A stretch of DNA of 44,142 nt from a virus. Lineage: Duplodnaviria > Caudoviricetes. The translations under genes and the position numbers were made by a program. Where the stretch lies: positions 1 to 44,142 of the IMG/VR virus record IMGVR_UViG_3300020382_000148. The stretch is one strand, 5' to 3'. This document shows, one piece after another, positions 1,224-33,405 of the stretch. Below the pieces are notes generated by a model. The model was not told where the DNA came from, searched no databases, and saw only the letters and a list, made by a program, of their open reading frames with translations. The first letter of the stretch is position 1. Each line of letters opens with the position of its first letter.

Positions 1224-1241
1224 TAAAACACTGTATTATGA
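1224..1241 (+). promoter_or_regulatory. 18-bp intergenic motif copy 1 (TAAAACACTGTATTATGA), probable promoter -10 region
   Basis: Exact repeat at 8238-8255; contains TATTAT; upstream of RBS and ATG at 1265. Confidence 0.55.
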
Positions 1242-1264
1242 TAACACACAGAAGGAGAAACGAT

Positions 1265-6067: not shown

Positions 6068-6226
6068 ATGGATACTAAATCCCTAGCAAAAGTCAAGAAA
6101 GTAAACGACAAACCTATTGTCAAAGCTAAGAAGAAGCCAACAGCTAAAGCCAAACGGGCCTCAGCTCTCACTAACTACCTTGAAGGCAATATGTCTATCT
6201 GGTGTCTTTACAAATTTAAACGATAA
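6068..6226 (+). CDS. small Lys-rich protein (52 aa)
   Basis: AGGAGG RBS; MDTKSLAKVKKVNDKPIVKAKKKPTAKAKR... Confidence 0.55.
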   Translation: MDTKSLAKVKKVNDKPIVKAKKKPTAKAKRASALTNYLEGNMSIWCLYKFKR

Positions 6227-6248
6227 CAATTACCCCACAGGAGGATGC

Positions 6249-7223
6249 ATGCGCAGAGAACTATTTAAACAGTTTTACGCCAACAGTGCCCAGCGCAAAG
6301 ATATTGATCCCAATGTCTGGATGCTAAACTACGTGATTGATCGCATGGAGATGAATGAACAGCAAGTCTTATGGCTATGCTTCCTCAATGCGATAACCTA
6401 CCATGCTCCTACTGCTCTCTTAATTTGGAATGAGTTTCCAGACCTAGAGTGTGCAGGGATTGAAAGACTTGAGGAGTGGTGGACGAAAGACATACAACTA
6501 CGTCTACCATTTCAGTCTGACAAACTTAAACAACGCAGACATTTACCTGAGACAGTCGCATCTTACAAAAAGATGGTTGGCGGTGATCAGGTCAAATACT
6601 TTAACAACCTATTATCTGGAACACCAGAAGAGAACTTCGACGTACTGTGGACAAAGGCGTTCAAGCCTATCCGTCACTTTGGTCGGTTCTCAGTCTGGAA
6701 CTGGGCACAAACGCTTAAGCAGGTAGCAGGATACGATATAGAACCAACTACATTGTTCCTTGGAGACAAGGACGCAGAGTCCATCACACATGGTGCTTGT
6801 TGGGTTATGGGTATGGAAAAGCAATGGGCTTACAAAGTCCGATGGGTTGACGACATCACCCTTAAGAAAAAGAAGTGGGTTCATGAGTTCACCCAATTAG
6901 AGAAAGATTTCTTAGAAATGTCCATCAGAAACATCATGGAAGAGATTCGAGAAGAGTATCCTAATATCCTTGTAGACGCATTTAATGTAGAAACAATGAT
7001 GTGTGCTTTTAAGAAGCTATTCAGGCAGAGAGACTCACGATACGTGGGCTACTACCTCGATAGACAGCGTCTAGACATCGACAACACTGCATCCAAAGAC
7101 TGGGTTGGGGTTGAATGGAAGCTGCTCTATGACGCTCGAGAGGAGCTCCTACATAAGGACTGGTTGAACGATCAGGTTGATAAAACTAAGTTTACACTCA
7201 CCGTAGAGGAGAAAATAGTATGA
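6249..7223 (+). CDS. alpha-glutamyl/putrescinyl thymine pyrophosphorylase-like amino acid:DNA transferase (probably clade 2)
   Basis: HhH-like IRHFGRFSVWNW, FNVETMMCAFKK, RYVGYYLDRQ and WL.FL..ITYH motifs; adjacent P-loop kinase; start moved to ATG 6249 after AGGAGG. Confidence 0.75.
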   Translation: MRRELFKQFYANSAQRKDIDPNVWMLNYVIDRMEMNEQQVLWLCFLNAITYHAPTALLIWNEFPDLECAGIERLEEWWTKDIQLRLPFQSDKLKQRRHLPETVASYKKMVGGDQVKYFNNLLSGTPEENFDVLWTKAFKPIRHFGRFSVWNWAQTLKQVAGYDIEPTTLFLGDKDAESITHGACWVMGMEKQWAYKVRWVDDITLKKKKWVHEFTQLEKDFLEMSIRNIMEEIREEYPNILVDAFNVETMMCAFKKLFRQRDSRYVGYYLDRQRLDIDNTASKDWVGVEWKLLYDAREELLHKDWLNDQVDKTKFTLTVEEKIV

Positions 7224-7849
7224 AGACTTACATCGGTATTTTAGGCAGTTGTGCCACAGGGAAGTCCACTCGTCTTAACATGTTCATCGAGTATTTAGAT
7301 GATATTGCAGGCATACCATATCAGGTACACGACTATGTATTTGAGAAGAATGGTGCTGAGATTGTCATCAAAAACGCTGGACGTGCTTACGCTAATGGTG
7401 TATATATCGTTGGAAACAAGACCAAATCAGGCAACTGGGTTGGAGCAGACTACACATTCGGGAAGCTTGGCGACAAGCAATCCATATATAACTTTCTTGA
7501 AGAAGCCACAGCAATCCACGACACTTTCATTGTAGAAGGTTACTTTGCAGTGGGTGGTGGGTTTCTTCGACCAGACGCTTTGTCTTTTATGTTCGACAAA
7601 GTTAATCAGTACTATTTTCTCTACGATACCCTCAACCAATACGTTGAACGTACTGAAAATCGCACAGGCAAGACTTGGGTTGACCGAGGTAAAGATCCTT
7701 CAAAATCAGCAGGTTGGAAGTCTAACCAGAGCTTTTTGACAGGAATGAAAAAGGCTATTGCTGGCTGTAGGCACAATGACAAAATCGTCAAAGTTGACTA
7801 TACCAAGAATAAATATTACTTCGTAGATGAATTCAAGGATCTTGTATGA
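7220..7849 (+). CDS. P-loop nucleotide kinase, probable 5-hmdU DNA kinase
   Basis: Walker A GSCATGKST, GAD, Walker B-like FIVEG, lid Arg motif ERTENR; ATGA-coupled to the transferase. Confidence 0.7.
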   Translation: MKTYIGILGSCATGKSTRLNMFIEYLDDIAGIPYQVHDYVFEKNGAEIVIKNAGRAYANGVYIVGNKTKSGNWVGADYTFGKLGDKQSIYNFLEEATAIHDTFIVEGYFAVGGGFLRPDALSFMFDKVNQYYFLYDTLNQYVERTENRTGKTWVDRGKDPSKSAGWKSNQSFLTGMKKAIAGCRHNDKIVKVDYTKNKYYFVDEFKDLV

Positions 7850-8232: not shown

Positions 8233-8255
8233 ACTTTTAAAACACTGTATTATGA
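8224..8255 (+). promoter_or_regulatory. sigma70-like promoter containing motif copy 2
   Basis: TTGCCC-N18-TATTAT; 8238-8255 identical to 1224-1241. Confidence 0.55.
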
Positions 8256-8319
8256 ATAAATAGCACAGGATCAATCAATGATTTTAAGGTTACTATTCCA
8301 GCTATAACTAAGCCCAATG

Positions 8320-12859: not shown

Positions 12860-14113
12860 ATGGACATTAAGTTAACAGAACCCCAAACCTCTGTGTTTGG
12901 CGACACTACGAGATTCCGCGTAGTATGTGCAGGTAGACGTTTCGGTAAGTCGTTCCTATCGGGAGCAGAACTACTCAACGCTGCCATAGGTGTAGATAAG
13001 AAAACAGGCAAACAGCAAGTCAAGCAGACTGTGGTATATATTGCCCCGACCTTTGCTATGGCTAAACAAATTATGTGGGTGTGGTTGAAAGAGTACGCCC
13101 CAAAGAGTTTCGTCAAAAGGACCAATGAATCGGACCTATTGATGGAGTTTAAGAATGGATCAACGATCTATTTAAAATCCGCAGAAAACTACGATTCTTT
13201 ACGTGGTTTGTCCTTGAGTTTCGTCGTTTTAGACGAAGTCGCTGACATAGCCCCAGAGTGTTGGAGTTTAGTTGTACGACCAGCACTATCAGACCAAGAA
13301 GGAGACGCTTTATTCATAGGTACTCCTAAAGGCACGAACCACTTCTATGATTGGTGGCTACAAGGCAAAGGATCGAGAGATGCTTGGAAGTCTTGGGCAT
13401 ACACTACACTGGAAGGTGGAAACGTAAGTGCAGCTGAGGTTGATGAATCTAAGAGAGACTTATCTCCAAGAGATTTTGCCCAAGAGTACATGGCAAGTTT
13501 CGAAGCATTGAGCAACCGAGTGGTTGACATGTTTGACAGAGACTTAAACGTTATGGAAGTAGGCGACTTAGGTGGAGAGATTCTTATTGGTATGGACTTC
13601 AACGTCTCACCAATGACAGCAGTTGTAGGAAGTAGGGTAGGTGACCAGTTACATATCTGGAAAGAGTACCATCAACAGAACTCTAACACCCGATACCTTA
13701 TGGATGCAATAGCGAAGGACTTTCCCAACAGAGAGATTACAGTATTCCCAGACCCTGCAGGTAGGGCTAGGAAGACATCCGCTATTGGCGGTGAGACCGA
13801 TCACACTATTATTAAATCATATGGTGCGAAGGTAGTATCTCCAGCGAAGTCTCCTCACGTAGCCGATGGCTTGAACAACTTAAATACAATGATGTGTAAC
13901 GGTCAAATGGAAAGAAGAATACTGATAGACCCTAGCTGTATCAAATTGATCAAGTCTTTAGACACTTGGACATACAGTGAAGATGAACAGAATTCTCGAC
14001 CAGACAAGAAGTCAGGAAACGACCACATGCCAGATGCTCTCAAGTATCTCGTATGGATGGAGTTCAGGATGAATGGTGGACAAGCACGTCAAGTAAAGAT
14101 CACAGGATTTTAG
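12860..14113 (+). CDS. terL: terminase large subunit
   Basis: Walker A AGRRFGKS, LRG, Walker B VVLDEVAD, GTPKG, nuclease GMDFN and DHMPDALKY. Confidence 0.97.
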   Translation: MDIKLTEPQTSVFGDTTRFRVVCAGRRFGKSFLSGAELLNAAIGVDKKTGKQQVKQTVVYIAPTFAMAKQIMWVWLKEYAPKSFVKRTNESDLLMEFKNGSTIYLKSAENYDSLRGLSLSFVVLDEVADIAPECWSLVVRPALSDQEGDALFIGTPKGTNHFYDWWLQGKGSRDAWKSWAYTTLEGGNVSAAEVDESKRDLSPRDFAQEYMASFEALSNRVVDMFDRDLNVMEVGDLGGEILIGMDFNVSPMTAVVGSRVGDQLHIWKEYHQQNSNTRYLMDAIAKDFPNREITVFPDPAGRARKTSAIGGETDHTIIKSYGAKVVSPAKSPHVADGLNNLNTMMCNGQMERRILIDPSCIKLIKSLDTWTYSEDEQNSRPDKKSGNDHMPDALKYLVWMEFRMNGGQARQVKITGF

Positions 14114-14502: not shown

Positions 14503-16011
14503 ATGCCATCTATGATAAGTACAAGACACCCTTTGCTGGTAGATAAACTCGACCAGATTCGGAGAGCACGTGATGCCTTCAAAGGTACTGATGCTATTAA
14601 AGCAACGGGCTACATCGGGGCCATGCCTCGTGACGAAGAATATCTTCCTAGGCTTGGTGGACAAAGTGAAGAAGACTACGAGAACTACAAGCGAAGGGCT
14701 GTGTTTTACGCAGCAATGAATCGTACAGTGGTTGCTCTGGTAGGAGCTTTGTGCCGCAAACCTTCTCAGATCGATAACGGTGAGATGCTTTCTGAATTCA
14801 TGAAAGACGTAACTGGAACTGGAATACCCTTTGATGAATTCTTGAAGAGAATTGAATCTGAGATAATGGTCTCTGGACGAGTAGTGATCTGTGTTGACAG
14901 AATGGACAACGAAACCAACCGACCTTATCTGGTCTGGTATAAGTCGGAAGACTGTACGAACTGGTTCACATCTAAGTCTAGCAATTTCTCACAAACACTA
15001 GAAACTGTAATCTTCAAAGAATCTTACTACGATGTTGATGGTGATAACCAATATCAACAAGTTGTTCGAGATCAATACCGTGAGTACACTATGGTCAATG
15101 GCCAATCTGTAGTTAACCTACACCAGCCAGTAAATAAATCCAAAGGTGGAACTATAACAGGTTCTGAGCAATACGAGATCGTACAGACTAAAGTGCTAAC
15201 AAACCGTGGAAAGCCACTGGGCTTTTTACCTTGTACTATGATCGTATCTTCTGGAGAAGATTTCGAAGTTCCTACTCCACCATTGTTAGATTTGGTTGAC
15301 GTGAACATTGCCCACTACCGTAACAGTGCTGATTTCGAGCACGGCTTACATTGGACAGCTTTGCCTACTCCTTGGTTCTCTGGACTAAGTGATGCTAGCT
15401 CTCAAATCTCTATAGGTTCTGGTGCTGCTATTATACTACCTGACCCTGCTTCTCATGCTGGGTTCTTAGAGTTTAGTGGTGCAGGTCTTACTCAGATTTC
15501 TGGAGCCATGAAGCACAAAGAAGCATTGATGTCTACTCTAGGTGCTCGTATGTTGAGTTCAGGAATGGATCAATCGACTAGTGCTGAAGTAGTACGTATA
15601 AACGTATCAGGAGAGATATCTGCATTGATTAATGTGGCTAAATCTGTGAGCCGTTGTGTAGGACGTGCACTTCGTATGGTAGCAGTCTGGGAAAACCAGA
15701 AAGGTGCTGAGAAAGTAGAAGTACACATAAATGAAGACTACGTAGATACCAAACTAGGTGCTGCAGACATTCAAGCGTTACTTGGAGCATACCAAGGAGG
15801 AGCATTGTCTCTCGACACTCTTCTCTGGAACCTTGAACAAGGTGAGCGTTTACCTATGGGTCGAACTATAGAGGACGAGATAGCTTTGATTGAAGTTGGT
15901 GCTGAGAAGGAAGCCGAAATGGCTATGAGCATGGAAGGTGAAGAAACTGGATATGCAGGAAACTTCTTTAACAGTGAATCAGGTTCTAACGAAGACGATA
16001 ATAATATTTAA
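14503..16011 (+). CDS. portal protein (DUF4055-like)
   Basis: YLPR...Y..RAVFY, PPLLDL..VNIAHYRNSAD.EH.LH..ALPTP motifs; position after TerL. Confidence 0.92.
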   Translation: MPSMISTRHPLLVDKLDQIRRARDAFKGTDAIKATGYIGAMPRDEEYLPRLGGQSEEDYENYKRRAVFYAAMNRTVVALVGALCRKPSQIDNGEMLSEFMKDVTGTGIPFDEFLKRIESEIMVSGRVVICVDRMDNETNRPYLVWYKSEDCTNWFTSKSSNFSQTLETVIFKESYYDVDGDNQYQQVVRDQYREYTMVNGQSVVNLHQPVNKSKGGTITGSEQYEIVQTKVLTNRGKPLGFLPCTMIVSSGEDFEVPTPPLLDLVDVNIAHYRNSADFEHGLHWTALPTPWFSGLSDASSQISIGSGAAIILPDPASHAGFLEFSGAGLTQISGAMKHKEALMSTLGARMLSSGMDQSTSAEVVRINVSGEISALINVAKSVSRCVGRALRMVAVWENQKGAEKVEVHINEDYVDTKLGAADIQALLGAYQGGALSLDTLLWNLEQGERLPMGRTIEDEIALIEVGAEKEAEMAMSMEGEETGYAGNFFNSESGSNEDDNNI

Positions 16012-16026: not shown

Positions 16027-16776
16027 ATGGCTATTTTAGATAGCATTAAAGAGGGACTGGCGTCTCTTGAAAGTGGAATGAAAGACACAGCTCGTGAAGC
16101 CACAAACACTTCTGGTTTGCGAGGATCAGCAGTCCACAAAGAGAAGATGAAAGATTGGTCTCGGTCAAAGGAAGGAGTTGCTCTTATAGACGTAGCTCTG
16201 TCTGTAGGACTTGAAGGTGTTGAAATGGCCACTAAGTCTGTCAACACAGCTGAAGCTTTTATCAACGATTCATACGAGAAGAAAGATGAGCTTATGGACT
16301 TAGGTCGTAAGATCGTGGATAAGAAATCTTATGAAGCTGGTGAGAAAGCATTAGATATGGCAGCTGAAGTAGAGGACTTTGTAAAGAAAAACTCTAAGAA
16401 GTTTGAGAAGTCTATCGAAAAAGCTGCAAGCACTACAAGTGAGTCTGCTTCAGAAGCTGGCGAATCTGCTCTTGACACTTTGAAGAAAGCTAAAGAAAGC
16501 TCTGAACAATTCACCTCTAACCTTGTGAAAGAAGTAGCTGACAAAGCTGAAGACTTTAAGAAAGACTTGAGTGATCAGTATGACGTACAAGTTAGTGCTA
16601 TAGATATGATGCTTGAGAGATCAGGTAACGATACTGCTATGGTTATGGACGACTTGAAAAACTTAGGAATGAAGTCTGCTGAAGAGCTCAAAGCAATAGG
16701 CGTAATCAAGATAGAAGCTTACACACGGACAGATGGTGGTAAAATACCAACTCACTTCCGTAAGAGAGCTAGATAA
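16027..16776 (+). CDS. charged alpha-helical hypothetical protein in head module
   Basis: AGGAGG RBS; E/K/A/S-rich; C-terminal IEAYTRTDG.KIPTHFR motif. Confidence 0.75.
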   Translation: MAILDSIKEGLASLESGMKDTAREATNTSGLRGSAVHKEKMKDWSRSKEGVALIDVALSVGLEGVEMATKSVNTAEAFINDSYEKKDELMDLGRKIVDKKSYEAGEKALDMAAEVEDFVKKNSKKFEKSIEKAASTTSESASEAGESALDTLKKAKESSEQFTSNLVKEVADKAEDFKKDLSDQYDVQVSAIDMMLERSGNDTAMVMDDLKNLGMKSAEELKAIGVIKIEAYTRTDGGKIPTHFRKRAR

Positions 16777-16878: not shown

Positions 16879-19800
16879 ATGGCTAAGAAAGATTTAACCA
16901 AGCAAATAGCTGCAAGGCGTGTTGTCTTAGATAACATACAGCCCAAGCAGAAGAAAGTTGTGGACGAATTGTTGGATGAGTTGACTCTCCACGCCCTACA
17001 ACTGCAACAAATAGCAAACAACCAAGACGTTGTGCTTGCTAAGTACTACAAGAAACTATCTGATGAACTTTTAGACAAAGTCAACACATACGATTTCGCT
17101 AGTGCTAAAGGTAACAAACTTAAGGCGAAGTATATTCGATCTCTGATGAAGGAAGGTTCTGAATCTATCGATGCTTCCCACAAACTAATTCAACAAGCTG
17201 TCCGTGACGGCTTAATCTCTGTCGGAGATTTAGAAACACAGTTCGCTGTAGGTTCTATAAACAAGGCAGTGACTGGCACAGGTACAATCAAGATCGCAAG
17301 TGAGACTCTGTCTCCTAAGAAGATCAGTACCATTGCGGACAACTTAATAGTAGAAGGTGTGCCCCAATCTCAGGTTTGGAGACGCCATAGCAAACGTGTA
17401 CAGGAAAAGTTCAAAGACGCTGTGCGAATGTCTTATCAAAACAATGAAGACATAGAGACGCTCTCAGGACGTATCCGTGGAACCTCTGCTAATAAATATA
17501 AGGACGGTATCCTTAATGTATCTAAGAACCAAGCTAATACGTTAGCACGTACTTCGATATCATCTGTATCTAACAGGACTCGTGAAGAGACCTACATAGC
17601 TAACCAAGATGTAATCAAAGGCGTACAGTTCCTAGCTCATCTTGACTCTAACACAACTCCGATATGTATGGCATACTCTGGAGACCAGTGGCTGTTTGAA
17701 GATGGAGGATACAGAAACATCGAAGGTGGTCATGAATTCCGACAACCACCATTGCACTTTAACTGCAGATCCACTATGCTTCCTTTGTTGAAGACTAGTG
17801 CTGAGTTAAAAGCAACTGTCCCAGCAAAATGGGATAGGATTCCAAAAGATAAACGTAAGACAATAGGAAAGATTCTTGGACCAAAGGTTTGTCACAGTCC
17901 CTGTACATACAGAGATGCTGACGAGTGGTTAAAGGGTCAAGACAAGAAGACACGCAAGCAGGTACTTGGATCAGACAAAGCAGTTGAACTGTGGGAAGCT
18001 GGCAAGGTAGCTATGGGACGTTTCGTTACCCAGAAGGGTAGGACGAGAACTCCTGAAGAGGTTGCAGCTCTATATGCGCAGAAGGAACTTGTTCCTGAAA
18101 CCGTACTAAAACTTAAATCAACAGACACTTTCAAGGCTAACGCTGGGGCTTCTAAAGAGGCGTCAGACAGAATTGGAAAGGTTGAGAAGGGAAAGTTCCT
18201 TACTATCGAAGGGAAGCTACAAACAGGGAAGAAGGTGTCACAGGGTGACAAGGATCTTCTGGGTTACATTCTAAAGAATGCTGATCCTACTGAATTTGAA
18301 TACAACAAAGGCTACGGCCCTGCTGACTTCAAAGACTTCATAGGTAACAAAGGTAAGCGACTAGCTTTCTACAACCACACAGCGAAGAGATTCGAGAGAA
18401 TCGAAGGGTTACGTAAAGGTGACCTAACGCTAAGACAAACAAACAAGTTAAACGAGACCGAAAGTTTAGTATACGATGAGATTATTTCTAAGATTTCTAA
18501 AGACACGAGGATTAACTCAGCACATCGAGAGATATTGCTGGAGATGTTCGAAGAGTCTAAAGATATCGTTGGAACTAGACGAAGCGTACCTATGCTAGAG
18601 TCTTTACTAACATTAGCACGTAGCGAGAACTTCTCATTCATTGATGGAGATTTCATAGGCTATATTAATAACTCTCTAAAGAACTCGGTGAACTCATACT
18701 TCAGCAGGTTAGTTAGAGCAGAGATTCGTACGACTGATAGCTTAGAGAAACTGAAGCGTTATGCTTTAGTCTCTGAGTCTGGAAAGACGACAGCCAAAGC
18801 TGCAATAAACAGAGACAAGTCATTCTTGTTAGAGTCCACGCCTACTCTGGCTGAAGCAACCAAATACAAGAAACGTATTACTGCTATCGGCAATAGGAAG
18901 CTAAGAAACTACGCAGGAGAGACGGCAACTGAACTCAGCGTAGACTTGGGACTCAACACTCAAGACACTCTATCCTTATTCTTCGGAGTTCTACAGGATG
19001 GTGTCAGGATGAGGCCCATGAACATTAGCAAGTTCGGCAGAAGGATGAAATCGAAAGAAGTACAATTCGTAATCTCAAGGACAAAACCTGGAGAGAAAAT
19101 TGTAATCAACGATTCAATCCTGAACAACTCTATGTTTGCTAAGTACAAGAATAAAGTATTTTCTGGGCGAGGATTGCCTCCAGAACTCAGGGATGAGTTG
19201 GGAGCTATTTTGCAAGATGCCCAAATGTATCAAGACGCTAGACGTTACATGAAAGGTAAGATCAAGGTTCCCGATACTGAGGTTCCTGATATTTACATTC
19301 GTTCTCAACTTGATAAGTTCCTGACTAACGATACAAAACCTATGCCTCTCATAACATTTATTGAGAAAGTAGATAAGCTGTATGACATGGATGGAACACA
19401 AAGAGCCAATGAACGAGTACGTATGGCTAAGAAAGCTCAGAAAGAACTAGGTAAGCAGGGTGCTTTTACTAGGCTACTGAGAACAGAGAAAGCAATAGAA
19501 CGTAAGCTTGATCTACGAAAGGCTCGTAAGACAGCTGGAGAGGATTGGGAATTAGAATCTGATGGCCCAATACTTCGAGCAACTTATGATAACATAGAGT
19601 CTAGTATAGATCAAGATTACCGTAAGCCTAGTTCTCCTTTTTACAAGGAAGCTAACTTACTAAGAAATGATAATCCTTTAGACCTAGCACGATTAACCAA
19701 CGAGGTTGCGTTATCGTCTACTCAAAAAGGATCAATGTACATCCAAGCTGTTAAAAAGCTAGGTGAGCGATACTACTACAGGTTTCAGAATGTTCTTGAC

Positions 19801-21924
19801 CCAGACGAAGATGATGCTTTGAGGATAGGAAACTATCTCATGAACTCTCTTGTTAAGACTGGAAATGTTAAGAGAATGAAATCGGTACAACGTGTCAAGC
19901 AAGACTTTCAGATCAGAGAAGTTACAGCTTGGACTTTGAAAGCAGACAACCCCGAATGGGAGACTCTGTTATTAGAGAACAAGAAGAACTACGAAGTCGA
20001 TGGTCTGCCTAGATTCAAAGCTCCAAAGTATGGCAGGGGAACTCTGACCAACGGTATCTACGAAGATACTGGTGAAGCCGCTATCCGTGGTTCCAATACG
20101 GACTGGGTAGAACTTCAATACAGGAACGGAAAATCTAAAGCATCGCTTGATAACTTAGACACAGAAGCTGGAACAGCTATCAGGGTTAATGGATATACCT
20201 ATGACGTATTGACAAAGCTCCGAAGCAACGGTGACGAATTTATACCATCTGCTCCTAAGTCGAAGAGGGACGTTGTAACACGAAGCAAGTATGATAGCTT
20301 CAATCGTGCTTTGATAAGTGCCCGAGGATTAAGAGACCAGAAATTCTATAACGGTATGAGCAATGATAAGTATGGACGAACTTACTCTAACGCTAGTGCA
20401 CTACAATGGCAGGGAGACGACTTCAACCGAGGTCTGATGCTCTTTGACAATGCTGTGGAATTAGGTAAAGATGGTAAAGACCATTTTGCCCAAGCGTTTA
20501 TGAACATCTCAGGATTTGATAAGATACCCCTCAGGGAGAGGTTGAAATTGTATGATCTAATAGATGAAGACTTAATACTTAAAACTGCTGCTGACCCATT
20601 CGCCAATGATTGGTGGAGGACGAAGACCAACTGGATTCAGACAGGCGTATTTAAGAATCTGCGAGGAGTGAACGTAAAGTACCAAGTGCCGAAAGGTGAA
20701 GGTGGAACTATGCATGTGCTTGATGAAATCAAGAAACTTGCTGTTGAAGCTGACCCAAGAGGTGATGGTGCACTACAACTTCTAGCGATGATTAAAGAAC
20801 GAGCTGAAATGATCGAGTGGACTAGGGCTGGCAATAAGATCAGCAAGTTCAAGAGTAGAATTCCAGTACAGATAGATGGTACAACAAACGTATTACAGCA
20901 CATAGCAGGAATATCTCGAGACCAGTCTACTGCTTCAGCAGTTAACATGACTGTTCGTAATGGTGTGGCAGACGCCTACATCAAGACTCGAGATGCAGTA
21001 GAACTACTAGCCAAGACCAAGTACGCAGATGACCCTGTCATTCAGAAGTACGTGTTCGAAGGCATGTCTCATAGTAAGAGACGTAAGTCGGTAAAGCATG
21101 GTTTGATGACCAGTCAGTATAACGCTGGCCCATCTACCTTAGGAGGAACCTACTTCGATGCACTCAAAGGCACGGTAATCAATGGAGAGAAAATCTTTGA
21201 TAACCCTACCGCTGGAGAGACACTTCGTATAGGTAGACTCATTCTTGAAGCATCTGAAAACGAGTTCCCAGAGGGATTCAAAACTCGAACAATGTTCAAC
21301 CAACTAGCAGAAGCTCACACACTTTCCAATAAAAAGGAAATTACACTAATAACTCCTAACGTTGGCAACCCGTTCCGTATGACATACTCAAAGACTTCGA
21401 CCAGACAGGTTGAATTGGACGACGGAAAAGGTGGCAAGATTAACGTAGAAGTTAGAGTAGAACTAGATGAGATGGACTGGGCTAAGCAAGAAAGAGCTTT
21501 CGCACCTAACATTATCCACGCATTCGACGCAGAGCATAAATCTCTCGTAGTTAACGCAATGGCTAAGAGGGGCATAGTAGACTTCAGTATGATTCACGAC
21601 AGTTTTGGTGCACACGCAGGTAATATGTCGCTAATGAAAAAGGAAACTAAAGCAGCCTTTGTCAAGATGTACAAACAAGAAAATATACTTGAGAAACTTT
21701 ACAAACACTTTAAGTCGCAAGGCGTAGAGATGGTTAGGTACTCAAGAGATGAATTCGGTCGAAAGATCAAATACACCAATAAAACGGTTCTTTCCAAAGG
21801 ACAATCCGCTCGAGCAGTCGATGGTAGAATTTGGGTAATAGAGGACATCAATAAGGAAGATATACTAGAGATGGGCAGTTACGATTTCCGTGACTTCGAA
21901 AAACTCGACTACTTCTTTCATTAA
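16879..21924 (+). CDS. MuF (SPP1 gp7-like) minor head protein fused to T7-family single-subunit DNA-directed RNA polymerase
   Basis: N-term MuF: ANTLART, AHLDSNTTPIC, PPLHFNCRS. C-term RNAP: DKYGRTY..QGDDFNRGLMLF, motif A PVQIDGTTNVLQH, motif B RKSVKHGLMTSQY, APNIIHAFDA, motif C MIHDSFG, terminal YFFH. Confidence 0.93.
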   Translation: MAKKDLTKQIAARRVVLDNIQPKQKKVVDELLDELTLHALQLQQIANNQDVVLAKYYKKLSDELLDKVNTYDFASAKGNKLKAKYIRSLMKEGSESIDASHKLIQQAVRDGLISVGDLETQFAVGSINKAVTGTGTIKIASETLSPKKISTIADNLIVEGVPQSQVWRRHSKRVQEKFKDAVRMSYQNNEDIETLSGRIRGTSANKYKDGILNVSKNQANTLARTSISSVSNRTREETYIANQDVIKGVQFLAHLDSNTTPICMAYSGDQWLFEDGGYRNIEGGHEFRQPPLHFNCRSTMLPLLKTSAELKATVPAKWDRIPKDKRKTIGKILGPKVCHSPCTYRDADEWLKGQDKKTRKQVLGSDKAVELWEAGKVAMGRFVTQKGRTRTPEEVAALYAQKELVPETVLKLKSTDTFKANAGASKEASDRIGKVEKGKFLTIEGKLQTGKKVSQGDKDLLGYILKNADPTEFEYNKGYGPADFKDFIGNKGKRLAFYNHTAKRFERIEGLRKGDLTLRQTNKLNETESLVYDEIISKISKDTRINSAHREILLEMFEESKDIVGTRRSVPMLESLLTLARSENFSFIDGDFIGYINNSLKNSVNSYFSRLVRAEIRTTDSLEKLKRYALVSESGKTTAKAAINRDKSFLLESTPTLAEATKYKKRITAIGNRKLRNYAGETATELSVDLGLNTQDTLSLFFGVLQDGVRMRPMNISKFGRRMKSKEVQFVISRTKPGEKIVINDSILNNSMFAKYKNKVFSGRGLPPELRDELGAILQDAQMYQDARRYMKGKIKVPDTEVPDIYIRSQLDKFLTNDTKPMPLITFIEKVDKLYDMDGTQRANERVRMAKKAQKELGKQGAFTRLLRTEKAIERKLDLRKARKTAGEDWELESDGPILRATYDNIESSIDQDYRKPSSPFYKEANLLRNDNPLDLARLTNEVALSSTQKGSMYIQAVKKLGERYYYRFQNVLDPDEDDALRIGNYLMNSLVKTGNVKRMKSVQRVKQDFQIREVTAWTLKADNPEWETLLLENKKNYEVDGLPRFKAPKYGRGTLTNGIYEDTGEAAIRGSNTDWVELQYRNGKSKASLDNLDTEAGTAIRVNGYTYDVLTKLRSNGDEFIPSAPKSKRDVVTRSKYDSFNRALISARGLRDQKFYNGMSNDKYGRTYSNASALQWQGDDFNRGLMLFDNAVELGKDGKDHFAQAFMNISGFDKIPLRERLKLYDLIDEDLILKTAADPFANDWWRTKTNWIQTGVFKNLRGVNVKYQVPKGEGGTMHVLDEIKKLAVEADPRGDGALQLLAMIKERAEMIEWTRAGNKISKFKSRIPVQIDGTTNVLQHIAGISRDQSTASAVNMTVRNGVADAYIKTRDAVELLAKTKYADDPVIQKYVFEGMSHSKRRKSVKHGLMTSQYNAGPSTLGGTYFDALKGTVINGEKIFDNPTAGETLRIGRLILEASENEFPEGFKTRTMFNQLAEAHTLSNKKEITLITPNVGNPFRMTYSKTSTRQVELDDGKGGKINVEVRVELDEMDWAKQERAFAPNIIHAFDAEHKSLVVNAMAKRGIVDFSMIHDSFGAHAGNMSLMKKETKAAFVKMYKQENILEKLYKHFKSQGVEMVRYSRDEFGRKIKYTNKTVLSKGQSARAVDGRIWVIEDINKEDILEMGSYDFRDFEKLDYFFH

Positions 21925-21962
21925 ACAATACCCTTATTTCGGGGAAATAGGAGACCACTAAG

Positions 21963-22757
21963 ATGGCTATTAAATATACATATGATGATGTCGCAGACAT
22001 TCCAACAGGCTTTGAAAGCCTATTCACTCAAGACGATGCTGGTGTTTTTACAATGTCAGAAGTCGAGGGTATTGCAGACAAAGGTAAGTTGAACGAGTTT
22101 CGTGAGAACAATATCGATTTGCGTAAGCAGATAGAAGATAATGCGTCTGCTCAAGCTGACCTAGAAAGCAAATTCTCAGGTGTGGATCTGGAAAAGTGGA
22201 AAGAGTTCCAAGAGAAAGAATCAGCAATGGCTGAACAACAGCGCAAGATCGATGACCAAGAACTCATTGACAAAGGCGATGTTGATACACTGATTGATCG
22301 TAGAGTTCAAGAAGTGTTAGCCGCAAAAGATAAGGAGCTTAGCTCATTACGAGGAGACCATGACGGCAAAGTGTCGGGTCTACAAGAGCAGCTCATGAAC
22401 TATGAGAACCAGTTCAGTTCTTTAGTTATCGACAGAGAGTTAGCATCGCTTTCAGCAGACCGTGGAGTAGCAGCATCAGCTGTGGAAGACGTTTTGACGA
22501 GAGGCCGATCTACTTTTAAGGTTGAAGATGGACGCCCTGTTGCATATGATGCAGATGGTTTGAAGATGTACGGTGAAGATGCAATCACACCGCTATCCGT
22601 TGGAGAATGGATAGACGGACTAAGTGATAAAGCTCCACATCTCTTCAATAAGTCTGCAGGAACGGGCATGACTCAGCCGTCAGAAACTTCAGCACCAGTT
22701 CGTGAAAGTGGCAACGCTACTGAAATGATCTTGGCTGGTTTGAAGACTTTGCGTTAA
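21963..22757 (+). CDS. capsid scaffolding protein
   Basis: Acidic coiled coil, KLNEFRENNI, EWI..L...APHLF motif; directly before MCP. Confidence 0.85.
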   Translation: MAIKYTYDDVADIPTGFESLFTQDDAGVFTMSEVEGIADKGKLNEFRENNIDLRKQIEDNASAQADLESKFSGVDLEKWKEFQEKESAMAEQQRKIDDQELIDKGDVDTLIDRRVQEVLAAKDKELSSLRGDHDGKVSGLQEQLMNYENQFSSLVIDRELASLSADRGVAASAVEDVLTRGRSTFKVEDGRPVAYDADGLKMYGEDAITPLSVGEWIDGLSDKAPHLFNKSAGTGMTQPSETSAPVRESGNATEMILAGLKTLR

Positions 22758-22854: not shown

Positions 22855-24210
22855 ATGGCTATTTCAGGATTAACTCTAGGCACACAACGTGACCTAACAA
22901 ACGACATGCTTGTTAAAGGCATTATTGATTCAATCGTAACTGTAAACCAGTTTTACCAGCACCTTCCTTTCAAAGGAATCCAAGGTAATGCTTTGGCTTA
23001 CAACCGTGAAGCTGTTGGCGTTGATCAGCAAGACCTAGTAAGCGTTATGCGTACTGGTGTTTCTGGTATCAACAAAGATCAACAGACTTTCACTCGCCAC
23101 TCTACTGAGCTTACCACCATCATTGGTGATGCACAAGTAAATGGTTTGATCCAAGCTGTAGGTTCTGACTACAACGATGCTACTGCTGTACAAGTTGCTG
23201 CTAAAGCTAAAGGCGTTGGCCGTAAGTTTATGGATCTTATGATCAACGGACAAGAAGGTTCTGCTACACGTGGCGTTGTCGCTTCTCTAGCATTGACAGG
23301 TACTCCTGCTCTAACTGCTACTTCTGCAACTACTGCTAAGAACTTCTATGATACAGTAATTCAAGGTGCAAACCTTTCTGCTGCTCGTGGAATTACTCCA
23401 ACCTACGACCTAAACGGTTCAGGTGCAGACAACAAAGGCTTCACGCAGGCTAACTTAGTAGCTGATACTGATACTGCAGCTGGCACCAACACTGGCATGA
23501 TCAACGTATATGTAAATGGCGTTGTTCATAAAGGACCATTCGCTTCTGGTACTCCAACTGCCGTTGCTATTACTTTGACTGCTGCTGGTGTTGTTTTGTA
23601 CAACTCTGCTTTACGTCTAGTAAACGGCCCATTAGGTTTTGACGGTCTTGATCGTTTCGTAACCTTAGCTGCTCGTACTACTGCTCCTTCTGCAATCGAC
23701 ATGACTGCTTCTGGTGCTGGTGATACCTTACTATCTCGTCTTGACGAGTACATTGATAACATCCATGACAAAGACGGAATGGTTGATTACATGATGATGA
23801 ACAGTGCTGGCGTACGTAAGTATACCCAAGCCTTGCGTTTATCTAACGCTGCTGGTTTTGATGACGTTATGGAAGTTAAAGATTCTTCTGGTGGTGTCAT
23901 GAAAGTACAATCGTACCGTGGTGTTCCAATCTACCGTAACGATTTCGTTCAATCTACTCTTGCTGAGCAAGCATCTCTTGCTGGCGGTAATGCTGGTGCT
24001 GGCTCTGGTGCTGCACACGTGTTCTGTGGTACTGTAGATGACGGTTCTTTCTCTCACGGTATTTGTGGTCTTACTGCACAAAACTCTTCTGGTATTCAAG
24101 TTGCTAAACTTGGTGCACGTGAAGATGTTGATGCTGAGATTACACGTGTTAAGTGGTATGTCGGTATGGCCAACTTTTCTGAGTTGGGTATTTTCCGCGG
24201 ACAAATCTAA
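22855..24210 (+). CDS. major capsid protein (HK97 fold) with large insertion
   Basis: LPF..IQGNALAYNRE, ING...FDGL, YRGVPI..NDF, TRVKWY.G; strong GGAGG RBS and biased codon usage. Confidence 0.93.
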   Translation: MAISGLTLGTQRDLTNDMLVKGIIDSIVTVNQFYQHLPFKGIQGNALAYNREAVGVDQQDLVSVMRTGVSGINKDQQTFTRHSTELTTIIGDAQVNGLIQAVGSDYNDATAVQVAAKAKGVGRKFMDLMINGQEGSATRGVVASLALTGTPALTATSATTAKNFYDTVIQGANLSAARGITPTYDLNGSGADNKGFTQANLVADTDTAAGTNTGMINVYVNGVVHKGPFASGTPTAVAITLTAAGVVLYNSALRLVNGPLGFDGLDRFVTLAARTTAPSAIDMTASGAGDTLLSRLDEYIDNIHDKDGMVDYMMMNSAGVRKYTQALRLSNAAGFDDVMEVKDSSGGVMKVQSYRGVPIYRNDFVQSTLAEQASLAGGNAGAGSGAAHVFCGTVDDGSFSHGICGLTAQNSSGIQVAKLGAREDVDAEITRVKWYVGMANFSELGIFRGQI

Positions 24211-27834: not shown

Positions 27835-30800
27835 ATGGCTGATTATACAAGTACGGTAGAGCTCAAAGCTAATACTCGTAAGTTAGAAAGTAGTATGAGG
27901 GATGTCACTGTCAAAATTGACAAGATGGGCACTAAGTTAAAAGGTGCTTCAACTCAATTTAGAAGGACAGCTAATACAGGTGTTGGTAGTCTACGCAAAT
28001 TAGACAAGAAGGTAACTGGCACAACTAAGATTATCCGAACAATGACTGCAGCATTCAGTGCTGTAGCTGTTACTATGTTCGTGTCTAAATCTTTGCAAGA
28101 ATTTGCTAAGCTAGAAGACGGACTTAAGCAGATCGGAACACTAGGTGTTAAAAACCTTAAAGGTGTAGAGAAAGCAGTATTCAAAACAGCGAAAGCGTTT
28201 GGCACAGATGTCAACGCAGCTACTAAAGGATACTACGACATAATCTCTGCTGGAGCCAGTTCAGCAGCAGCGGCATCAGATCAGCTTACAGCTGCAGCCA
28301 AGCTAGCTAAAGCAGGTAACACTGATCTTGGTAAATCGGTTGATATCCTTACTACAGCCATAAACGTATTTGGGGATAACGGTGAGACATCTTCAACTAT
28401 CATAGATAAGTTATTTACTACAGTTAAGCTAGGTAAGACTACTGTAGCTGAGTTAGGTCAATCATTTGGTCTAGTTGCTGCTACGGCAGATGCTGCTGGA
28501 GTCAGTCTCGCAGAGACAGGTTCAGCTCTAGCTGTAATGACTGCAGGTGGTCTTAGTACCTCTACTGCAGTAACAGGATTAAAAGCTGCATTGAGTAACA
28601 TCATCAAGGTGACACCAAAGGCTGAGAAAGCTGCTAAAGCATTAGGCATAGAGTTTACTCAAGCCTCCTTAGCATCTAAAGGCTTTGTCGCATTCTTCGA
28701 AGATATAAGAAAGAAGACAGGCGGTTCGGTAGTTGAACTTGGTAAGTTATTTGATTCAGTAGAAGCGATTAACGCTGTAGCTACTATGACCTCAGACGTA
28801 GGTATCAAGAAGCTAGCAAATGCTATGGATCAAATGCAGAACTCCGCAGGAACTGTAGAGAGAGCATGGGAGACTGTCGCTGACAGCCTGTCTGTATTGT
28901 TCGCACGAGTTTCTAATACTATGTTAGAAGCTAGTCACTCTATAACAGAATTGATCGTAGGGCCATTGAAGAGTCTCTTAAAAGGTATTTTAGAGAACTC
29001 CGAAGGTTTCCGTACGTTCAAGAAAGTAATAGTAGGAGCAACAGGTGCTGCAGTAGCATTACTTGCAGTATTCGCAGTTTCAAAGTTTAAAGCTATAACA
29101 GTAGGCGTAATGTCGTTGACAAGAGCCTTGATGTTGAACCCACTATTCCTCATAGGAGGAGCAGCTGGATTCGCTGTAGTAGAATTGTTTGAAAGGTTTG
29201 GAGGATTCACAGAAGGGTTCACAACTGCAATCAACAGAATGCAAGTTGTGTATGAAAACTGGTTAGCTGGTTTTAAGACCAACAGTGTATTCGTAGCCTT
29301 CACAGCAAACTTAGACAAGTTACACGATACATTCAAAAAGACGATAGGAATTGCTTTCGGCTACGTATCTAACTTAGATTGGGACGCTGCTTGGCATGGT
29401 TTGGGACATTTCTCAGAAAGTGTAGCTGGCATAACCAAATCTGCTCTTGAATTTTTACAAGAGCCTATCAAAGATGCCTATGATGTTTTAAGTGCTATAG
29501 ATTGGACTGTAATATGGGGAGACTTAGCAAAAGATACACAGGCAGTTTATGATGTTTTGAAAGTAGCATACAGTGAAGTTGCCCAGCCACTTGTTGATGT
29601 GTTCGACACTATTAAAGCTATCGATTGGTCAACGATGTGGGGTGGTTTGTACGAAGGAACACAACAAGTTTTGTCTTGGTTCCTTGATATGTACATATAC
29701 CTTGTAGGATCCTCTATTGTACCTGACATGGTCAATGAGATCGGTGCATGGTTTACTAAGCTAGTCGACATGGTTCTTATTCCAGTAGAGGAAATGTACA
29801 ACGGTGTGGTCAAGTTGTTTGACTTGATGTACACAAATATCACAGGAACTACTAGGAAGTCTGTAAACGAAGTAAACTCAATACTGGCAGACGTTCATGG
29901 ACCTAATGACTTAGACAAGGGCATTTTCCAAGGGGTTTTAAGTGCAAGTACGATAGAAAACCTTAATGAAGTTTGGGAAAACTTGACAACAACCTTTAAA
30001 GTTATTGGAGGTCTGATAATTGGAATTTTTTCTATAACTATTCTTTCTAAGTTCAGTAAGACTGCATCTAAAATGTTTGATACCTTTAGGTCTTCAGCTT
30101 CCACTGTCTCTGGTAAGCAGGGATTAGTCAATAGAGCTTTGTACGGCAAAGAGGGCAGCTCTAGAGCAGCCATGAAAAACGTGGCGAAATTGCGTAAAGA
30201 AGTAGAAAGATTAGAAGGTGGACAAAGGATCCAAAAAGGGGAAGCCACTGGAAAAGGTAGGTTCCAATCCTTGGGTATGCAGAGAGCTTCAACCTTGGAC
30301 AAGGGCGTACTTAAAGGTCAGATAGCTAATGCTGAAGCCGAAATAAAGAAACTTGGCGCAAAGGCTCCAGGAAGAGGGATTATGTCCCGATTCTTATATG
30401 GCAATGGTCAAAACGTAACAGGCTTTACTCAAAAGTTTACATTGCTTACCGCTAGAGTAAAATCTAGCTTATTGTCAATAGGTGCTAGTGTAAGTAAAGG
30501 TATAGGTTTTGCTTCACGTGCTATATTCGGTGCTGCAGGTTCTGCCGCTATAAGTACTAAGTTTAGTGCTATGGTGTCTGGCATAAAGCTAAAGGCTCTA
30601 GGTCTTAGGGCTTCTTTAGAAACTAGGGCTATCTCTAACCATATGCTTTACGGCAAAGGTGGAGTGTCTGGAGCTATACTAGCTGGATGGACGAAGTTTA
30701 CTACTATCATTGGTAAGAGTAAGTTTAAGTTGCTAGGTGTAGCTGCTGCAGGTGTAGCAGGAATGGCTCTTTACGGAGCTACTGGTGGATCTGAAGGCAT

Positions 30801-33405
30801 AACTAGCAAATGGGAATCATTCCTAGATAGCATTAGCTTTGACAAGATCAAAGAGACTGCTCTTAACGCATTTTCTGAGTACGGTACAGACGGTCTTATA
30901 ATGTGGGCTATGTTTGGTGCTCCTGGATCTGGTGCACTTCTAGGCGGCATAACTAAAGCATTCGCAGGAATGAAAGGAATGCTTGCTAAAGTGTTGCTTC
31001 CTGCTATCGGTTACCTAGCAACAACTGGTGCTGGTATATTATCTGGCCCAGTGGGTTGGATTGCTTTAGGATTAGCTGGCGCAGCTGCAATCACTTATGC
31101 TTTATGGCCTAAGATAGAACCTATGTTCACTGATATGTGGAATGGCGTTACTAGCTGGTTCAGTGGGATTGATTTCTCAGGACTATGGGACGGATTAGTT
31201 AGTTCTATCACTTCTCCTTTGCAATCCATAAAAAGTGCCATTATGTCTACTTTCACTTTTACAAGTGGTAAAGAAAGAACTGGCAACCCAGCTGGTTTGG
31301 GTCGTGGGCTCCAGAAAAAGGCTGATGGTGGGTTTATTATAGGAGAAGGTTCCGCAACTTCAGACTCTATCCCAGCTATGCTATCTAATGGCGAGTATGT
31401 GATCAACGCACAATCTACAAAGAAACACCGTAAGCTTCTTGAATCTTTAAACAAGAACAGGTTTAGTATGGGTGGATATGTAGGTGGTTATGAATCAGGT
31501 TCAGGTGAAGCTGGACCACCTCGTGTACAGTTCACAGGTGGAAAGTTCGACCACACTAAGACGCTGAAAGCATTTGGTGGCTTTATGGATGAGTCCAGCG
31601 AAGAGATGCGAATCTTTAAAGATAGCTTAGATGTACTTAGTGAGAATACTTTCAGGTTGACTGAAGAGCAAATCAATGAGCTTTCACTCGTCAAACAAAT
31701 GAACAGTATGACGGCTGGTCTTATCAATACTCAAAAGATGCAAGAAAATGCTGCTAAGGTTGGTATCGTTGGTACTAAAGAAACAACCAAAGCTGTAGTA
31801 ACTCTAGGAGAGAAGACCAAGGAAGCTGCAGATAAGATCGAAAATGTATGGTCAGGCTTTGGCAAGACCCTAACAAATGATCTTAAAGATTCTCTATCAC
31901 GTGCTGACTTCAGCAGTGTTGGAGATGCTATCGGTTCAGGCATAAGAAGTTTAGCTGAAAAAGTTTCTCGTACTATGTTAGACAGAGCATTCGCTCCTAT
32001 GGAGAAAGGTCTTGATACGTGGTTCCAAACTATGGACACTATGGAAATTGAAGGCAGTACAATGTTTGCTCGTTTAGGAAACATGGGATCACAGATGTTC
32101 AGTGGCATGGGTAGTGCCCTTAGCCAAGCATTCAGTAGTATGAGTGGTGGCGGTGGTTTCTTCAGTGCTATAGTAGGAAGCCTATTCGGTGGCACTACAG
32201 GACCAAAAGCAGGCATGACAGCTTATGCAAGTGGCGGTCGAGTAGCTGGTCCAGGATCTGGTACAAGTGATTCTATAGTAGCACGTCTAAGTAACGGAGA
32301 GTTTGTCGTCAACGCAGCTAGTGCTCAAGCTAATCTGGGTCTGTTAACGCAGATCAATGGCGGCTTTGCAAAAGGTGGACACGTCGGTGAGAAGAAATCA
32401 GGCAACAAAGCAATAGATTTCTTATCAAGTTTAGACGATGGCATCCAAGGGTTTGTGGGTAAGATAACTAATGGCATTTCTAATGCTGTAAGTTCTGTTC
32501 TCCCTAAGCGTGGTAAAGCTGACGAGAAAAAGGGTGAATCTGGTGGCATCATGGATTTCCTTAAGTTCTTAATTCCTGGAGCTGGAATAATGGAGTTTAT
32601 GGTAGATGCTTTAGCAAAAGCAAGAGGACCAGATGGCTTCTTCCCTGACAGCACTATTGGTGGACTAGTTCCCGACTTCCCGACTCGAAAGGTCATGGAA
32701 CGTGGACGTGGATTCGAAGCACTTAACGGTGGTGGATTAGGTGGTTTTTCTCCTAACTCTATGGACTTTAAGAGAGCTGAGTCTCAACGTACTAGTATCA
32801 ACAGTAGATTGTTTACTACTTCTGCTCGTAAAGATCAACTAGGAAGATTGACAACAGCACAACGTGCAGCTTTTGTATCAGGTACTCAACAGAAAGATAG
32901 TCGAGGACGATTCAAGAATGCTAACGATGTTCTGTCTAGGATTTCTGGTGGATCTATGGGTGAATCCAATGCTCAACGTGAAAGTAAGACTATCGCTCAA
33001 ATCAAGAGCGGAGCTTTGTCGAACTTTGTGAGTAGTAGTGGAAGCTCTATAAAGGGTGTAACTAATAGCTTTGACAGGTCTGACTCTAGATTGTCTAATG
33101 CAGTTTCTAAACCTAAGAAGGTTAAAACTGTAAGCAGTAACACTGGCCATCCTGGAGCTATGGCTAAAGGCGGTATGGTTGGGCGTCCTAAGAATAGGAT
33201 TCCTAAGTATGCTTCTGGAGGACGAGTGAACACAGGTGGTGCTGGCAATGATGGCCCTATCTATCTAACTCTTAACAACAACTATGATGTACAGTCCGCT
33301 ATGAACCCAGCAGAGTTCCAAGCAATGTTGGCTAACAACAGCGAATTGTCCTTCTTAAGTGTTGAGAAGAAGCTTAGAGAAACAGGAAGATCACTATATA
33401 AGTAA
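27835..33405 (+). CDS. tail tape measure protein (TP901-type core)
   Basis: 1856 aa, Ala/Gly-rich helical; YDIISAG, TVKLGKTT..EL motifs; Trp-periodic repeats; two GG...G.GS.TSDSI.A.LSNGE.V.NA motifs. Confidence 0.95.
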   Translation: MADYTSTVELKANTRKLESSMRDVTVKIDKMGTKLKGASTQFRRTANTGVGSLRKLDKKVTGTTKIIRTMTAAFSAVAVTMFVSKSLQEFAKLEDGLKQIGTLGVKNLKGVEKAVFKTAKAFGTDVNAATKGYYDIISAGASSAAAASDQLTAAAKLAKAGNTDLGKSVDILTTAINVFGDNGETSSTIIDKLFTTVKLGKTTVAELGQSFGLVAATADAAGVSLAETGSALAVMTAGGLSTSTAVTGLKAALSNIIKVTPKAEKAAKALGIEFTQASLASKGFVAFFEDIRKKTGGSVVELGKLFDSVEAINAVATMTSDVGIKKLANAMDQMQNSAGTVERAWETVADSLSVLFARVSNTMLEASHSITELIVGPLKSLLKGILENSEGFRTFKKVIVGATGAAVALLAVFAVSKFKAITVGVMSLTRALMLNPLFLIGGAAGFAVVELFERFGGFTEGFTTAINRMQVVYENWLAGFKTNSVFVAFTANLDKLHDTFKKTIGIAFGYVSNLDWDAAWHGLGHFSESVAGITKSALEFLQEPIKDAYDVLSAIDWTVIWGDLAKDTQAVYDVLKVAYSEVAQPLVDVFDTIKAIDWSTMWGGLYEGTQQVLSWFLDMYIYLVGSSIVPDMVNEIGAWFTKLVDMVLIPVEEMYNGVVKLFDLMYTNITGTTRKSVNEVNSILADVHGPNDLDKGIFQGVLSASTIENLNEVWENLTTTFKVIGGLIIGIFSITILSKFSKTASKMFDTFRSSASTVSGKQGLVNRALYGKEGSSRAAMKNVAKLRKEVERLEGGQRIQKGEATGKGRFQSLGMQRASTLDKGVLKGQIANAEAEIKKLGAKAPGRGIMSRFLYGNGQNVTGFTQKFTLLTARVKSSLLSIGASVSKGIGFASRAIFGAAGSAAISTKFSAMVSGIKLKALGLRASLETRAISNHMLYGKGGVSGAILAGWTKFTTIIGKSKFKLLGVAAAGVAGMALYGATGGSEGITSKWESFLDSISFDKIKETALNAFSEYGTDGLIMWAMFGAPGSGALLGGITKAFAGMKGMLAKVLLPAIGYLATTGAGILSGPVGWIALGLAGAAAITYALWPKIEPMFTDMWNGVTSWFSGIDFSGLWDGLVSSITSPLQSIKSAIMSTFTFTSGKERTGNPAGLGRGLQKKADGGFIIGEGSATSDSIPAMLSNGEYVINAQSTKKHRKLLESLNKNRFSMGGYVGGYESGSGEAGPPRVQFTGGKFDHTKTLKAFGGFMDESSEEMRIFKDSLDVLSENTFRLTEEQINELSLVKQMNSMTAGLINTQKMQENAAKVGIVGTKETTKAVVTLGEKTKEAADKIENVWSGFGKTLTNDLKDSLSRADFSSVGDAIGSGIRSLAEKVSRTMLDRAFAPMEKGLDTWFQTMDTMEIEGSTMFARLGNMGSQMFSGMGSALSQAFSSMSGGGGFFSAIVGSLFGGTTGPKAGMTAYASGGRVAGPGSGTSDSIVARLSNGEFVVNAASAQANLGLLTQINGGFAKGGHVGEKKSGNKAIDFLSSLDDGIQGFVGKITNGISNAVSSVLPKRGKADEKKGESGGIMDFLKFLIPGAGIMEFMVDALAKARGPDGFFPDSTIGGLVPDFPTRKVMERGRGFEALNGGGLGGFSPNSMDFKRAESQRTSINSRLFTTSARKDQLGRLTTAQRAAFVSGTQQKDSRGRFKNANDVLSRISGGSMGESNAQRESKTIAQIKSGALSNFVSSSGSSIKGVTNSFDRSDSRLSNAVSKPKKVKTVSSNTGHPGAMAKGGMVGRPKNRIPKYASGGRVNTGGAGNDGPIYLTLNNNYDVQSAMNPAEFQAMLANNSELSFLSVEKKLRETGRSLYK

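Follow-up and report, generated by a model that had tools for sequence, protein, structure and literature searches.

What does a T7-family RNA polymerase (RNAP) do at the end of a phage head protein? This question is raised by the window analysed here, which is the whole of one record (G000) of 44,142 bases with all of its genes on one strand, the + strand, to which all window coordinates below refer. Its module of head and long-tail genes is complete, and since no replication genes were found among its ORFs, we regard it as a piece of a larger genome. The gene in question (16879..21924) was assigned from its ORF and from Pfam and PHROG matches as a MuF-RNAP fusion of 1681 amino acids and about 190 kDa. 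An earlier note on this DNA had described one uninterrupted ORF between portal and scaffold. The frame is indeed open, with zero internal stops, and the scaffold does lie on one side, but a 249-amino-acid orphan gene separates the portal from the fusion.

Anatomy of the fusion gene and its neighbourhood

The head module consists, in this order, of the terminase large subunit (12860..14113, from the PHROG/annotation scan), the portal protein (14503..16011), a hypervariable orphan gene (16027..16776), the fusion, the head scaffolding protein (21963..22757) and the major capsid protein (22855..24210); the portal would be the partner expected for a MuF domain. The tail genes code for the tape measure protein (27835..33405, 1856 amino acids), major tail, distal tail and central fibre proteins of a long non-contractile tail, and the tape measure protein gave no RNAP match. 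Among the 54 window ORFs scanned, the fusion is the sole MuF-type gene. In the window's lineage the scaffold gene stands directly after the fusion in 25 of 27 loci, a set in which some entries are one contig filed twice, and the portal is found at most three ORFs upstream in the 10 loci that reach that far.

Some minor features of this neighbourhood were also recorded. The orphan gene codes for 249 to 642 amino acids in relatives, is replaced in strain X4 and is missing in some relatives; no family and no usable ESM Atlas match were found for it. Two near-identical, hairpin-like repeats of 29 nt lie right before the large terminase gene (12759-12822). The capsid protein (451 amino acids, with a weak DUF4183 match below the cut-off) carries a mid-protein insert that is missing in relatives L020, L021, L024 and L181-183 (314-322 amino acids). 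Finally, repeat units of 105 nt are common to a tail fibre gene (34766-35285) and an ORF at 43203-44142 that extends past the end of the record.

The MuF or SPP1 gp7-type minor head domain covers 16879..18102 (residues 1 to about 408, the end being placed from unfused sisters of 369-375 amino acids). Pfam Phage_Mu_F (PF04233) was matched at residues 196-300 with 32.0 bits against a cut-off of 29.6, and PHROG 241 (head morphogenesis) at residues 23-606 with an E value of 2.5e-64, in agreement with the N-terminal MuF domain claimed before. A conserved middle region of no known family follows (18103..19578, residues about 409-900, dN/dS 0.095-0.123). It gave no Pfam match above the cut-off, residues 410-900 had no usable ESM Atlas match, and in a search of representatives the matches to residues 501-900 were confined to the window's lineage. 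The next segment (19579..20268) is probably what is left of the promoter-binding domain at the N-terminus of T7 RNAP: in MAFFT alignments to T7, the single method that places it, residues 900-1100 align partly to T7 residues 94-330, the thumb is short and a hairpin-like stretch lies at about 995-1020. Since Pfam RPOL_N found no match in the fusion protein, this assignment is tentative.

The T7-family polymerase core (20269..21921) was recognised by Pfam, PHROG, alignment to T7 and its aromatic C-terminus. Pfam RNA_pol (PF00940) was matched at residues 1296-1681 with 174.4 bits against a cut-off of 22, and the PHROG RNA polymerase family at residues 1134-1616 with an E value of 4.2e-75. The core contains the DxxGR motif (20365), the motif A aspartate (20875), motif B (21082-21120), a specificity-loop-like insert placed where T7 has its specificity loop (21385-21468) and the motif C HD (21595-21600). 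The equivalences with T7 are D1163 to D421, R1167 to R425, D1333 to D537, R1402 to R627, K1406 to K631, Y1414 to Y639, H1547 to H784, H1573/D1574 to H811/D812 and F1680 to F882; in all, the equivalents of T7 D421, R425, Y427, K472, D537, R627, K631, M635, Y639, N781, H784, D787, H811, D812 and F882 are kept. Two departures were noted, a Y at the place of R423 (Y or F in the family) and N1415 at that of G640 (YN versus YG). The residues named in the earlier note for DxxGR, motifs A, B and C, YN and the aromatic C-terminus are thus all present and align with T7 RNAP, the exact form of the first motif being DKYGR, with Y replacing R423. The 17 PDB sequence matches were mitochondrial and T7 RNAPs (T7 at E 1e-39 by profile), with no N4 virion RNAP (vRNAP) chain among them. 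Judged by these matches, the fusion protein is a member of both the MuF and the T7 RNAP families.

Conservation, relatives and origin of the fusion

As the window is an uncultured assembly, the join between the two domains might be thought a chimera or a decaying gene. An assembly chimera or a stop between the domains had been named in the earlier note as what would refute it. In run X4, which comes from another study and is not flagged as the source of the record, one contig of 22.8 kb spans 16818-24500 with 12 substitutions and zero gaps. Half or more of the sampled words of the gene were contained in 16 of the 24 listed runs; the holder runs belong to 12 studies, all marine by record, and three rows are flagged as possible source. 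RNA run X15 also has contigs covering the gene, but these were discarded as evidence of expression, since they come from the same sample as a possible source and contigs cannot show transcription.

A protein search (7999 candidates scored) returned 25 matches, made up of the protein's own cluster, 22 relatives with 37-85% identity and two mitochondrial-type RNAPs. In the alignment of 23 rows, the MuF motif PPLHFNCRS is present in 21 and motif C in 22; both occur in 20, the misses being truncated. D1333 is present in all 23 rows, and R1402, K1406, Y1414, H1547, H1573 and D1574 in 22, the one miss being a truncated row. Against four relatives, dN/dS was 0.06-0.12 in the MuF, middle, N-terminal-like and core regions alike, by which measure purifying selection acts on every part of the fusion. 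With an independent gap-free contig, both motifs in 20 of 23 proteins and dN/dS of about 0.1, the chimera or decay explanation can be considered refuted. When residues 501-1681 were searched against 1.84 billion representatives, 11 family matches were followed by standalone RNAPs with at most 135 bits, matched in the core only. In a separate comparison with phage records, none of the 3182 matching ones reached 80% query coverage. On these comparisons the fusion is real, conserved and widespread.

Next to the fused proteins there are sisters without the polymerase. A search for shorter proteins (7013 candidates scored) gave 69 matches, of which the best eight, with 369-408 amino acids, are 41-51% identical to fusion residues 20-410. 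The top short proteins are as near to the MuF part of the window as the fused relatives are. Seven of these eight stop together just past an FVTQKGR motif, and the eighth resembles a cut fusion; the common end places the junction near residue 400. In both loci that hold such a gene, the plain MuF gene is followed by the scaffold gene about 25 bases later. The near relatives L241 and L242, with a plain MuF of 373-375 amino acids and without RNAP cargo, are natural controls, and the capsid proteins of the unfused-sister loci are 59-78% identical to that of the window. These sisters indicate that the RNAP is a detachable cargo, dispensable in some phages, and that MuF has a role of its own. No swap of the RNAP for another cargo was seen in the window's lineage.

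The earlier note could not exclude that database entries of this fusion existed, and the same architecture is indeed in GenBank, unrecognised, as gp108 of the cultured phage DSS3_VP1 (Naomviridae), which matches the query at two places, gp108 and a standalone RNAP of 732 amino acids. Gp108, named 'head morphogenesis', has 1463 amino acids, the portal on one side and the scaffold on the other, and Pfam matches to MuF (51.7 bits) and RNA_pol (27.1 bits, cut-off 22). Like the window fusion, gp108 and its DSS3_PM1 counterpart ('minor head protein-like') combine MuF and RNA_pol between portal and scaffold. Among 299 homologues of gp108, the 120 listed span 44-100% identity; about 93 of these, by hand count, carry both Pfam labels, and they are named at most 'gp7 family head morphogenesis'. 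In 33 aligned homologues the aspartates of motifs A and C and the K and Y of motif B are invariant. In IMG/VR, 558 stretches match this DSS3-like lineage. In PMC8323127 the fusion is absent from text and supplements, where the gene is tabulated as 'minor head protein-like', and the term 'RNA polymerase' has no use in the main texts of PMC8323127, PMC12669031 and PMC12697855. A DSS3-type fusion with 31% identity also lies at 25876-31141 of JF412302.1 (EBPR siphovirus 1), where an HNH endonuclease gene, perhaps an intron, splits its annotation into pieces.

The two lineages are far apart. BLASTP aligns the DSS3 and window fusions in the MuF part alone, with 34% identity over 174 amino acids, and their profiles are 19% identical. 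Portal, scaffold and capsid of the window had no BLASTP match to DSS3 at E 0.01, and the window portal is 20-22% identical to the portals of DSS3 relatives; judged by shared head proteins, the window phage would fall outside Naomviridae. In quick trees the two fused lineages are separate long branches. A single clade for both was rejected by the AU test neither for MuF (p 0.257) nor for the RNAP core (p 0.899), for which the constrained tree was 18.1 log-units better, possibly by long-branch pull. A MuF clade of fused proteins without the short sisters was likewise not rejected (p 0.114), nor was descent of the fused RNAP, by gene duplication, from the standalone RNAP of the same phage (p 0.524). 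By these tests, a single and a double origin of the fusion would both be compatible with the data. The short sisters lie inside the fused lineage in the MuF tree, with a support of 100 for the joint clade, and this nesting suggests loss of the cargo, although a twofold loss is the order drawn by the tree and falls short of proof.

Second polymerases and promoter-like motifs

The relative G001 (61,717 bases), whose fusion is 79% identical to that of the window, is collinear with the window from the terminase onward at about 75% DNA identity, and reaches a region to which the window does not extend. There it encodes a standalone RNAP of 876 amino acids in which both RPOL_N and RNA_pol are matched. 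The gene is preceded by those of a SAM lyase and some small proteins, and behind it come genes for a primase-helicase, DNA polymerase A and a protein similar to thymidylate synthase. G001 is the sole record of the window's lineage that reaches this region and the sole source of its second RNAP; in six fragments (11-36% complete) bearing the promoter-like motif described below, no RNAP was found. The completeness of 100% given by CheckV for G001 was rejected, since its sequence breaks off within the gene for the tape measure protein. DSS3_VP1 resembles G001 in having an extra standalone RNAP. Both RNAPs occur in 8 of 16 longer DSS3-like records, including all three rated at least 90% complete; the other eight are 38-71% complete.

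In the DSS3-like lineage, an early motif of 36 nt gave 15 matches in seven of seven genomes, all on the coding strand and all upstream of the gene for the standalone RNAP, at a distance of up to 6.7 kb. Nine of the 15 are training sites, and six lie in four genomes outside the training. In DSS3_VP1 the motif had no further match over 75,000 bases, and one shuffle of 206,606 bases gave none. A second, T7-like class occurs in 13 copies in DSS3_VP1, past the standalone RNAP gene and ahead of middle and late genes, and this two-class pattern is the one described for P23-45. The early motif contains a perfect TATAAT, which is preceded by a conserved box at a distance of 13 nt. Such a box and spacing correspond to the geometry of T4 MotA-type promoters, and the motif could also be an activator-dependent promoter of the host RNAP.

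The window's lineage has a single motif class, with nine copies in G001 (one before the standalone RNAP gene and eight after) and two in the window, at 1222..1245 (score 24.0) and at 8236..8259 (score 32.6), the latter being the last before the late genes; five shuffles gave 0-1 matches at a score of 11 or more. The structural genes of the window and of G001 are free of copies. We lean to the standalone RNAP as the owner of this motif, and with a single class the fused enzyme gets no assigned promoter. The DSS3-like early motif had no match in G001 or the window, and exact repeats in the window included no promoter for the fused enzyme. This promoter may lie in the missing left end of the genome, for which no relative was found. 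In G001 1-8500, where the left end is perhaps missing, 15 sigma-70 sites were found versus 15.3 expected.

Proposed role of the fused polymerase and its alternatives

Several known systems resemble the fusion in part. In N4 and Schitoviridae (N4 gp50, DEV gp71), a T7-superfamily RNAP is carried in the head (PMC5512222, PMC11445570), as is proposed here, and a second phage RNAP is present in the genome, as in G001 and the near-complete DSS3-like records. N4 gp50, in a short-tailed phage, has 3500 amino acids (about 3400-3500 in its class) and a metallopeptidase-like C-terminal packaging region, whereas the window fusion has 1681, begins with MuF, ends at the polymerase C-terminus and belongs to a long-tailed phage; its core is nearer to ordinary T7 and mitochondrial RNAPs than to N4 vRNAP. 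P23-45 is a siphophage with a structural fusion, as here: gp96 is a vRNAP fused to the tape measure, accompanied by the non-virion RNAP gp64 (nvRNAP) and two promoter motifs; it transcribes the nvRNAP gene, and relatives without a fused RNAP exist (as reported in bioRxiv 2022.12.01.518664). The P23-45 enzyme, however, is two-barrel and tail-borne, while that of the window is of the right-hand T7 family and is joined to a protein of the head. With SPP1 gp7, 80alpha gp44 and the MuF toxins the fusion shares PF04233, the portal-scaffold slot and a C-terminal cargo, but its cargo is a module of about 1270 amino acids with a transcription enzyme instead of a toxin, has no immunity gene and was not found in prophages. 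T7 RNAP and Xp10-like siphophage RNAPs share the catalytic core, being 24-27% identical across some 30% of the protein, but they are standalone, non-virion enzymes. The fusion most likely works like the virion RNAPs of N4 and P23-45, and by its sequence it would be a member of neither class. No paper on a MuF-RNAP fusion was found in full-text searches of a largely open-access literature. In PMC5576092, a survey of MuF proteins, the word 'polymerase' does not occur in the main text (its supplements may bear on the point), and PMC5512222 has passages in which MuF effectors and N4 vRNAP are treated apart.

Packaging, ejection, activity and promoter choice are what we infer for this protein, and we give a probability of roughly 0.7 to a portal-anchored, injected virion RNAP that starts a polymerase relay like that of N4 and P23-45. 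The head operon would supply the fusion protein late in infection, and its MuF part would dock on the portal and bring one or two copies into the procapsid, as is described for SPP1 gp7, which binds the portal at 1-2 copies per capsid (PMC5576092, PMC6316719). It would then be ejected with the DNA, probably unfolded or domain by domain; since 190 kDa have to pass a narrow long tail, unfolded or piecewise ejection, or cleavage, has to be assumed, and this is the hardest step. Once ejected it might be held near the DNA end like 80alpha gp44, a protein encoded between portal and scaffold, ejected in about two copies and binding genome ends (PMC7290940). The middle region might serve in tail passage or DNA binding, which is speculation. 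Transcription by the fused RNAP would begin at promoters of its own, in a short early block to which the standalone RNAP gene belongs, and the standalone RNAP would then take over the middle genes. With less weight, the fused RNAP may help to transcribe a genome with modified thymidine, or to pull the DNA in. That MuF is a packaging tag for a working RNAP was already proposed in the earlier note, and it now has comparative support from the conserved slot, the selection, the second RNAP, the early motif and the sisters.

The gene sits in the late operon, and an enzyme acting late in the producing cell, as late-gene polymerase or in packaging-coupled transcription at the portal, and then cleaved off or never injected, has to be weighed as well. 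T7 needs its RNAP for concatemer processing, and the structural region of the window and G001 is free of the motif, which would leave room for another late-gene transcriber in this lineage. We nevertheless consider this role unlikely: the T7-like motif of DSS3_VP1 (13 copies) also precedes late genes and leaves no late job, the join to MuF persists in relatives with 37% identity and again in a second, distant lineage, and SPP1 gp7 is located inside the procapsid (PMC6316719). The protein could instead be packaged and injected while early RNA comes from the host RNAP, with or without a virion activator; the fused RNAP would then be mainly an end-bound motor for pulling in DNA, or a primer-maker. 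The perfect TATAAT of the DSS3-like early motif and the binding of gp44 to genome ends (PMC7290940) would fit, but the box and TATAAT are 13 nt apart, whereas sigma-70 promoters have a spacing of 16-18 nt, no excess of sigma-70 sites was seen in G001 1-8500 (where the left end may be missing), and a specificity-loop-like insert is kept in the fused RNAP, so that we hold this for quite improbable.

A very improbable reading, in our view, is that of an accessory effector directed against the host or its defences, with RNA products other than phage mRNA. MuF proteins carry many swappable effectors (PMC5576092, PMC5512222), and the cargo is missing in the sisters; against this, the lineage shows no cargo swap, the scaffold and not an immunity-type gene comes next in 25 of 27 loci, and the absence of fusions among six genome-collection loci gives no sign of temperate life.

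The injected virion RNAP, if true, would directly prove, for the first time, that large cargoes of MuF proteins arrive functional in the cytoplasm; so far their delivery is a hypothesis (PMC5576092, PMC6316719, PMC11699363). The question becomes testable here, as the action of an RNAP can be read out directly and DSS3_VP1 is a cultured phage. Few phage groups are known to have virion RNAPs, and each of them loads the enzyme in a way of its own. We think it somewhat more probable than the opposite that a third route exists, in which MuF loads a T7-family RNAP into the head, from where it is threaded through the tail, and by which infection starts in hundreds of long-tailed marine phages with non-standard thymidine from at least two deep lineages, Naomviridae included. 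Such a MuF-anchored, T7-type route would be common in the sea, as judged from the IMG/VR stretches of the DSS3-like lineage, and masked by the label 'minor head protein'. It would also draw attention to new single-subunit RNAPs whose template is likely DNA with modified thymidine, and to the use of MuF as a tag by which large enzymes could be brought into phage heads.

With regard to modified DNA, the window contains amidotransferase, GNAT, ADDT and HMUD2 genes (2350-7849). ADDT (amino acid:DNA transferase) and HMUD2 (5-hmdU DNA kinase), at 6117..7849, are both above the Pfam cut-off. Enzymes of these types belong to thymidine hypermodification pathways (PMC8989533, PMC5889632), and hypermodification via 5-hmdU, possibly with a new side chain, is predicted for the window phage. 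DSS3_VP1 has dU in place of T (PMC8323127), a difference from the predicted 5-hmdU pathway, and together the two make it likely that non-standard thymidine is common to both lineages. ADDT was present in one of nine records tested; it is thus lineage-specific, and the idea that modified thymidine requires a virion RNAP is no more than a weak correlation. Phages such as M6 and ViI have DNA of this kind and are not known to carry a virion RNAP.

G001 also encodes both ADDT and HMUD2. Its early region contains two intergenic three-way junctions (L013:1094-1152 and L013:3107-3168) with a hammerhead ribozyme core in type II order, in which stem I differs yet pairs (z -2.6 and -2.3); Rfam made no call on them, and they may cut the early polycistronic RNA. 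Further genes of G001 code for a ClpX-like ATPase with ClpP and for an SbmA/BacA transporter beside a MotA/ExbB-like gene (L013:10453-12408 / L014:11953-13472), and a leucyl aminopeptidase is encoded too.
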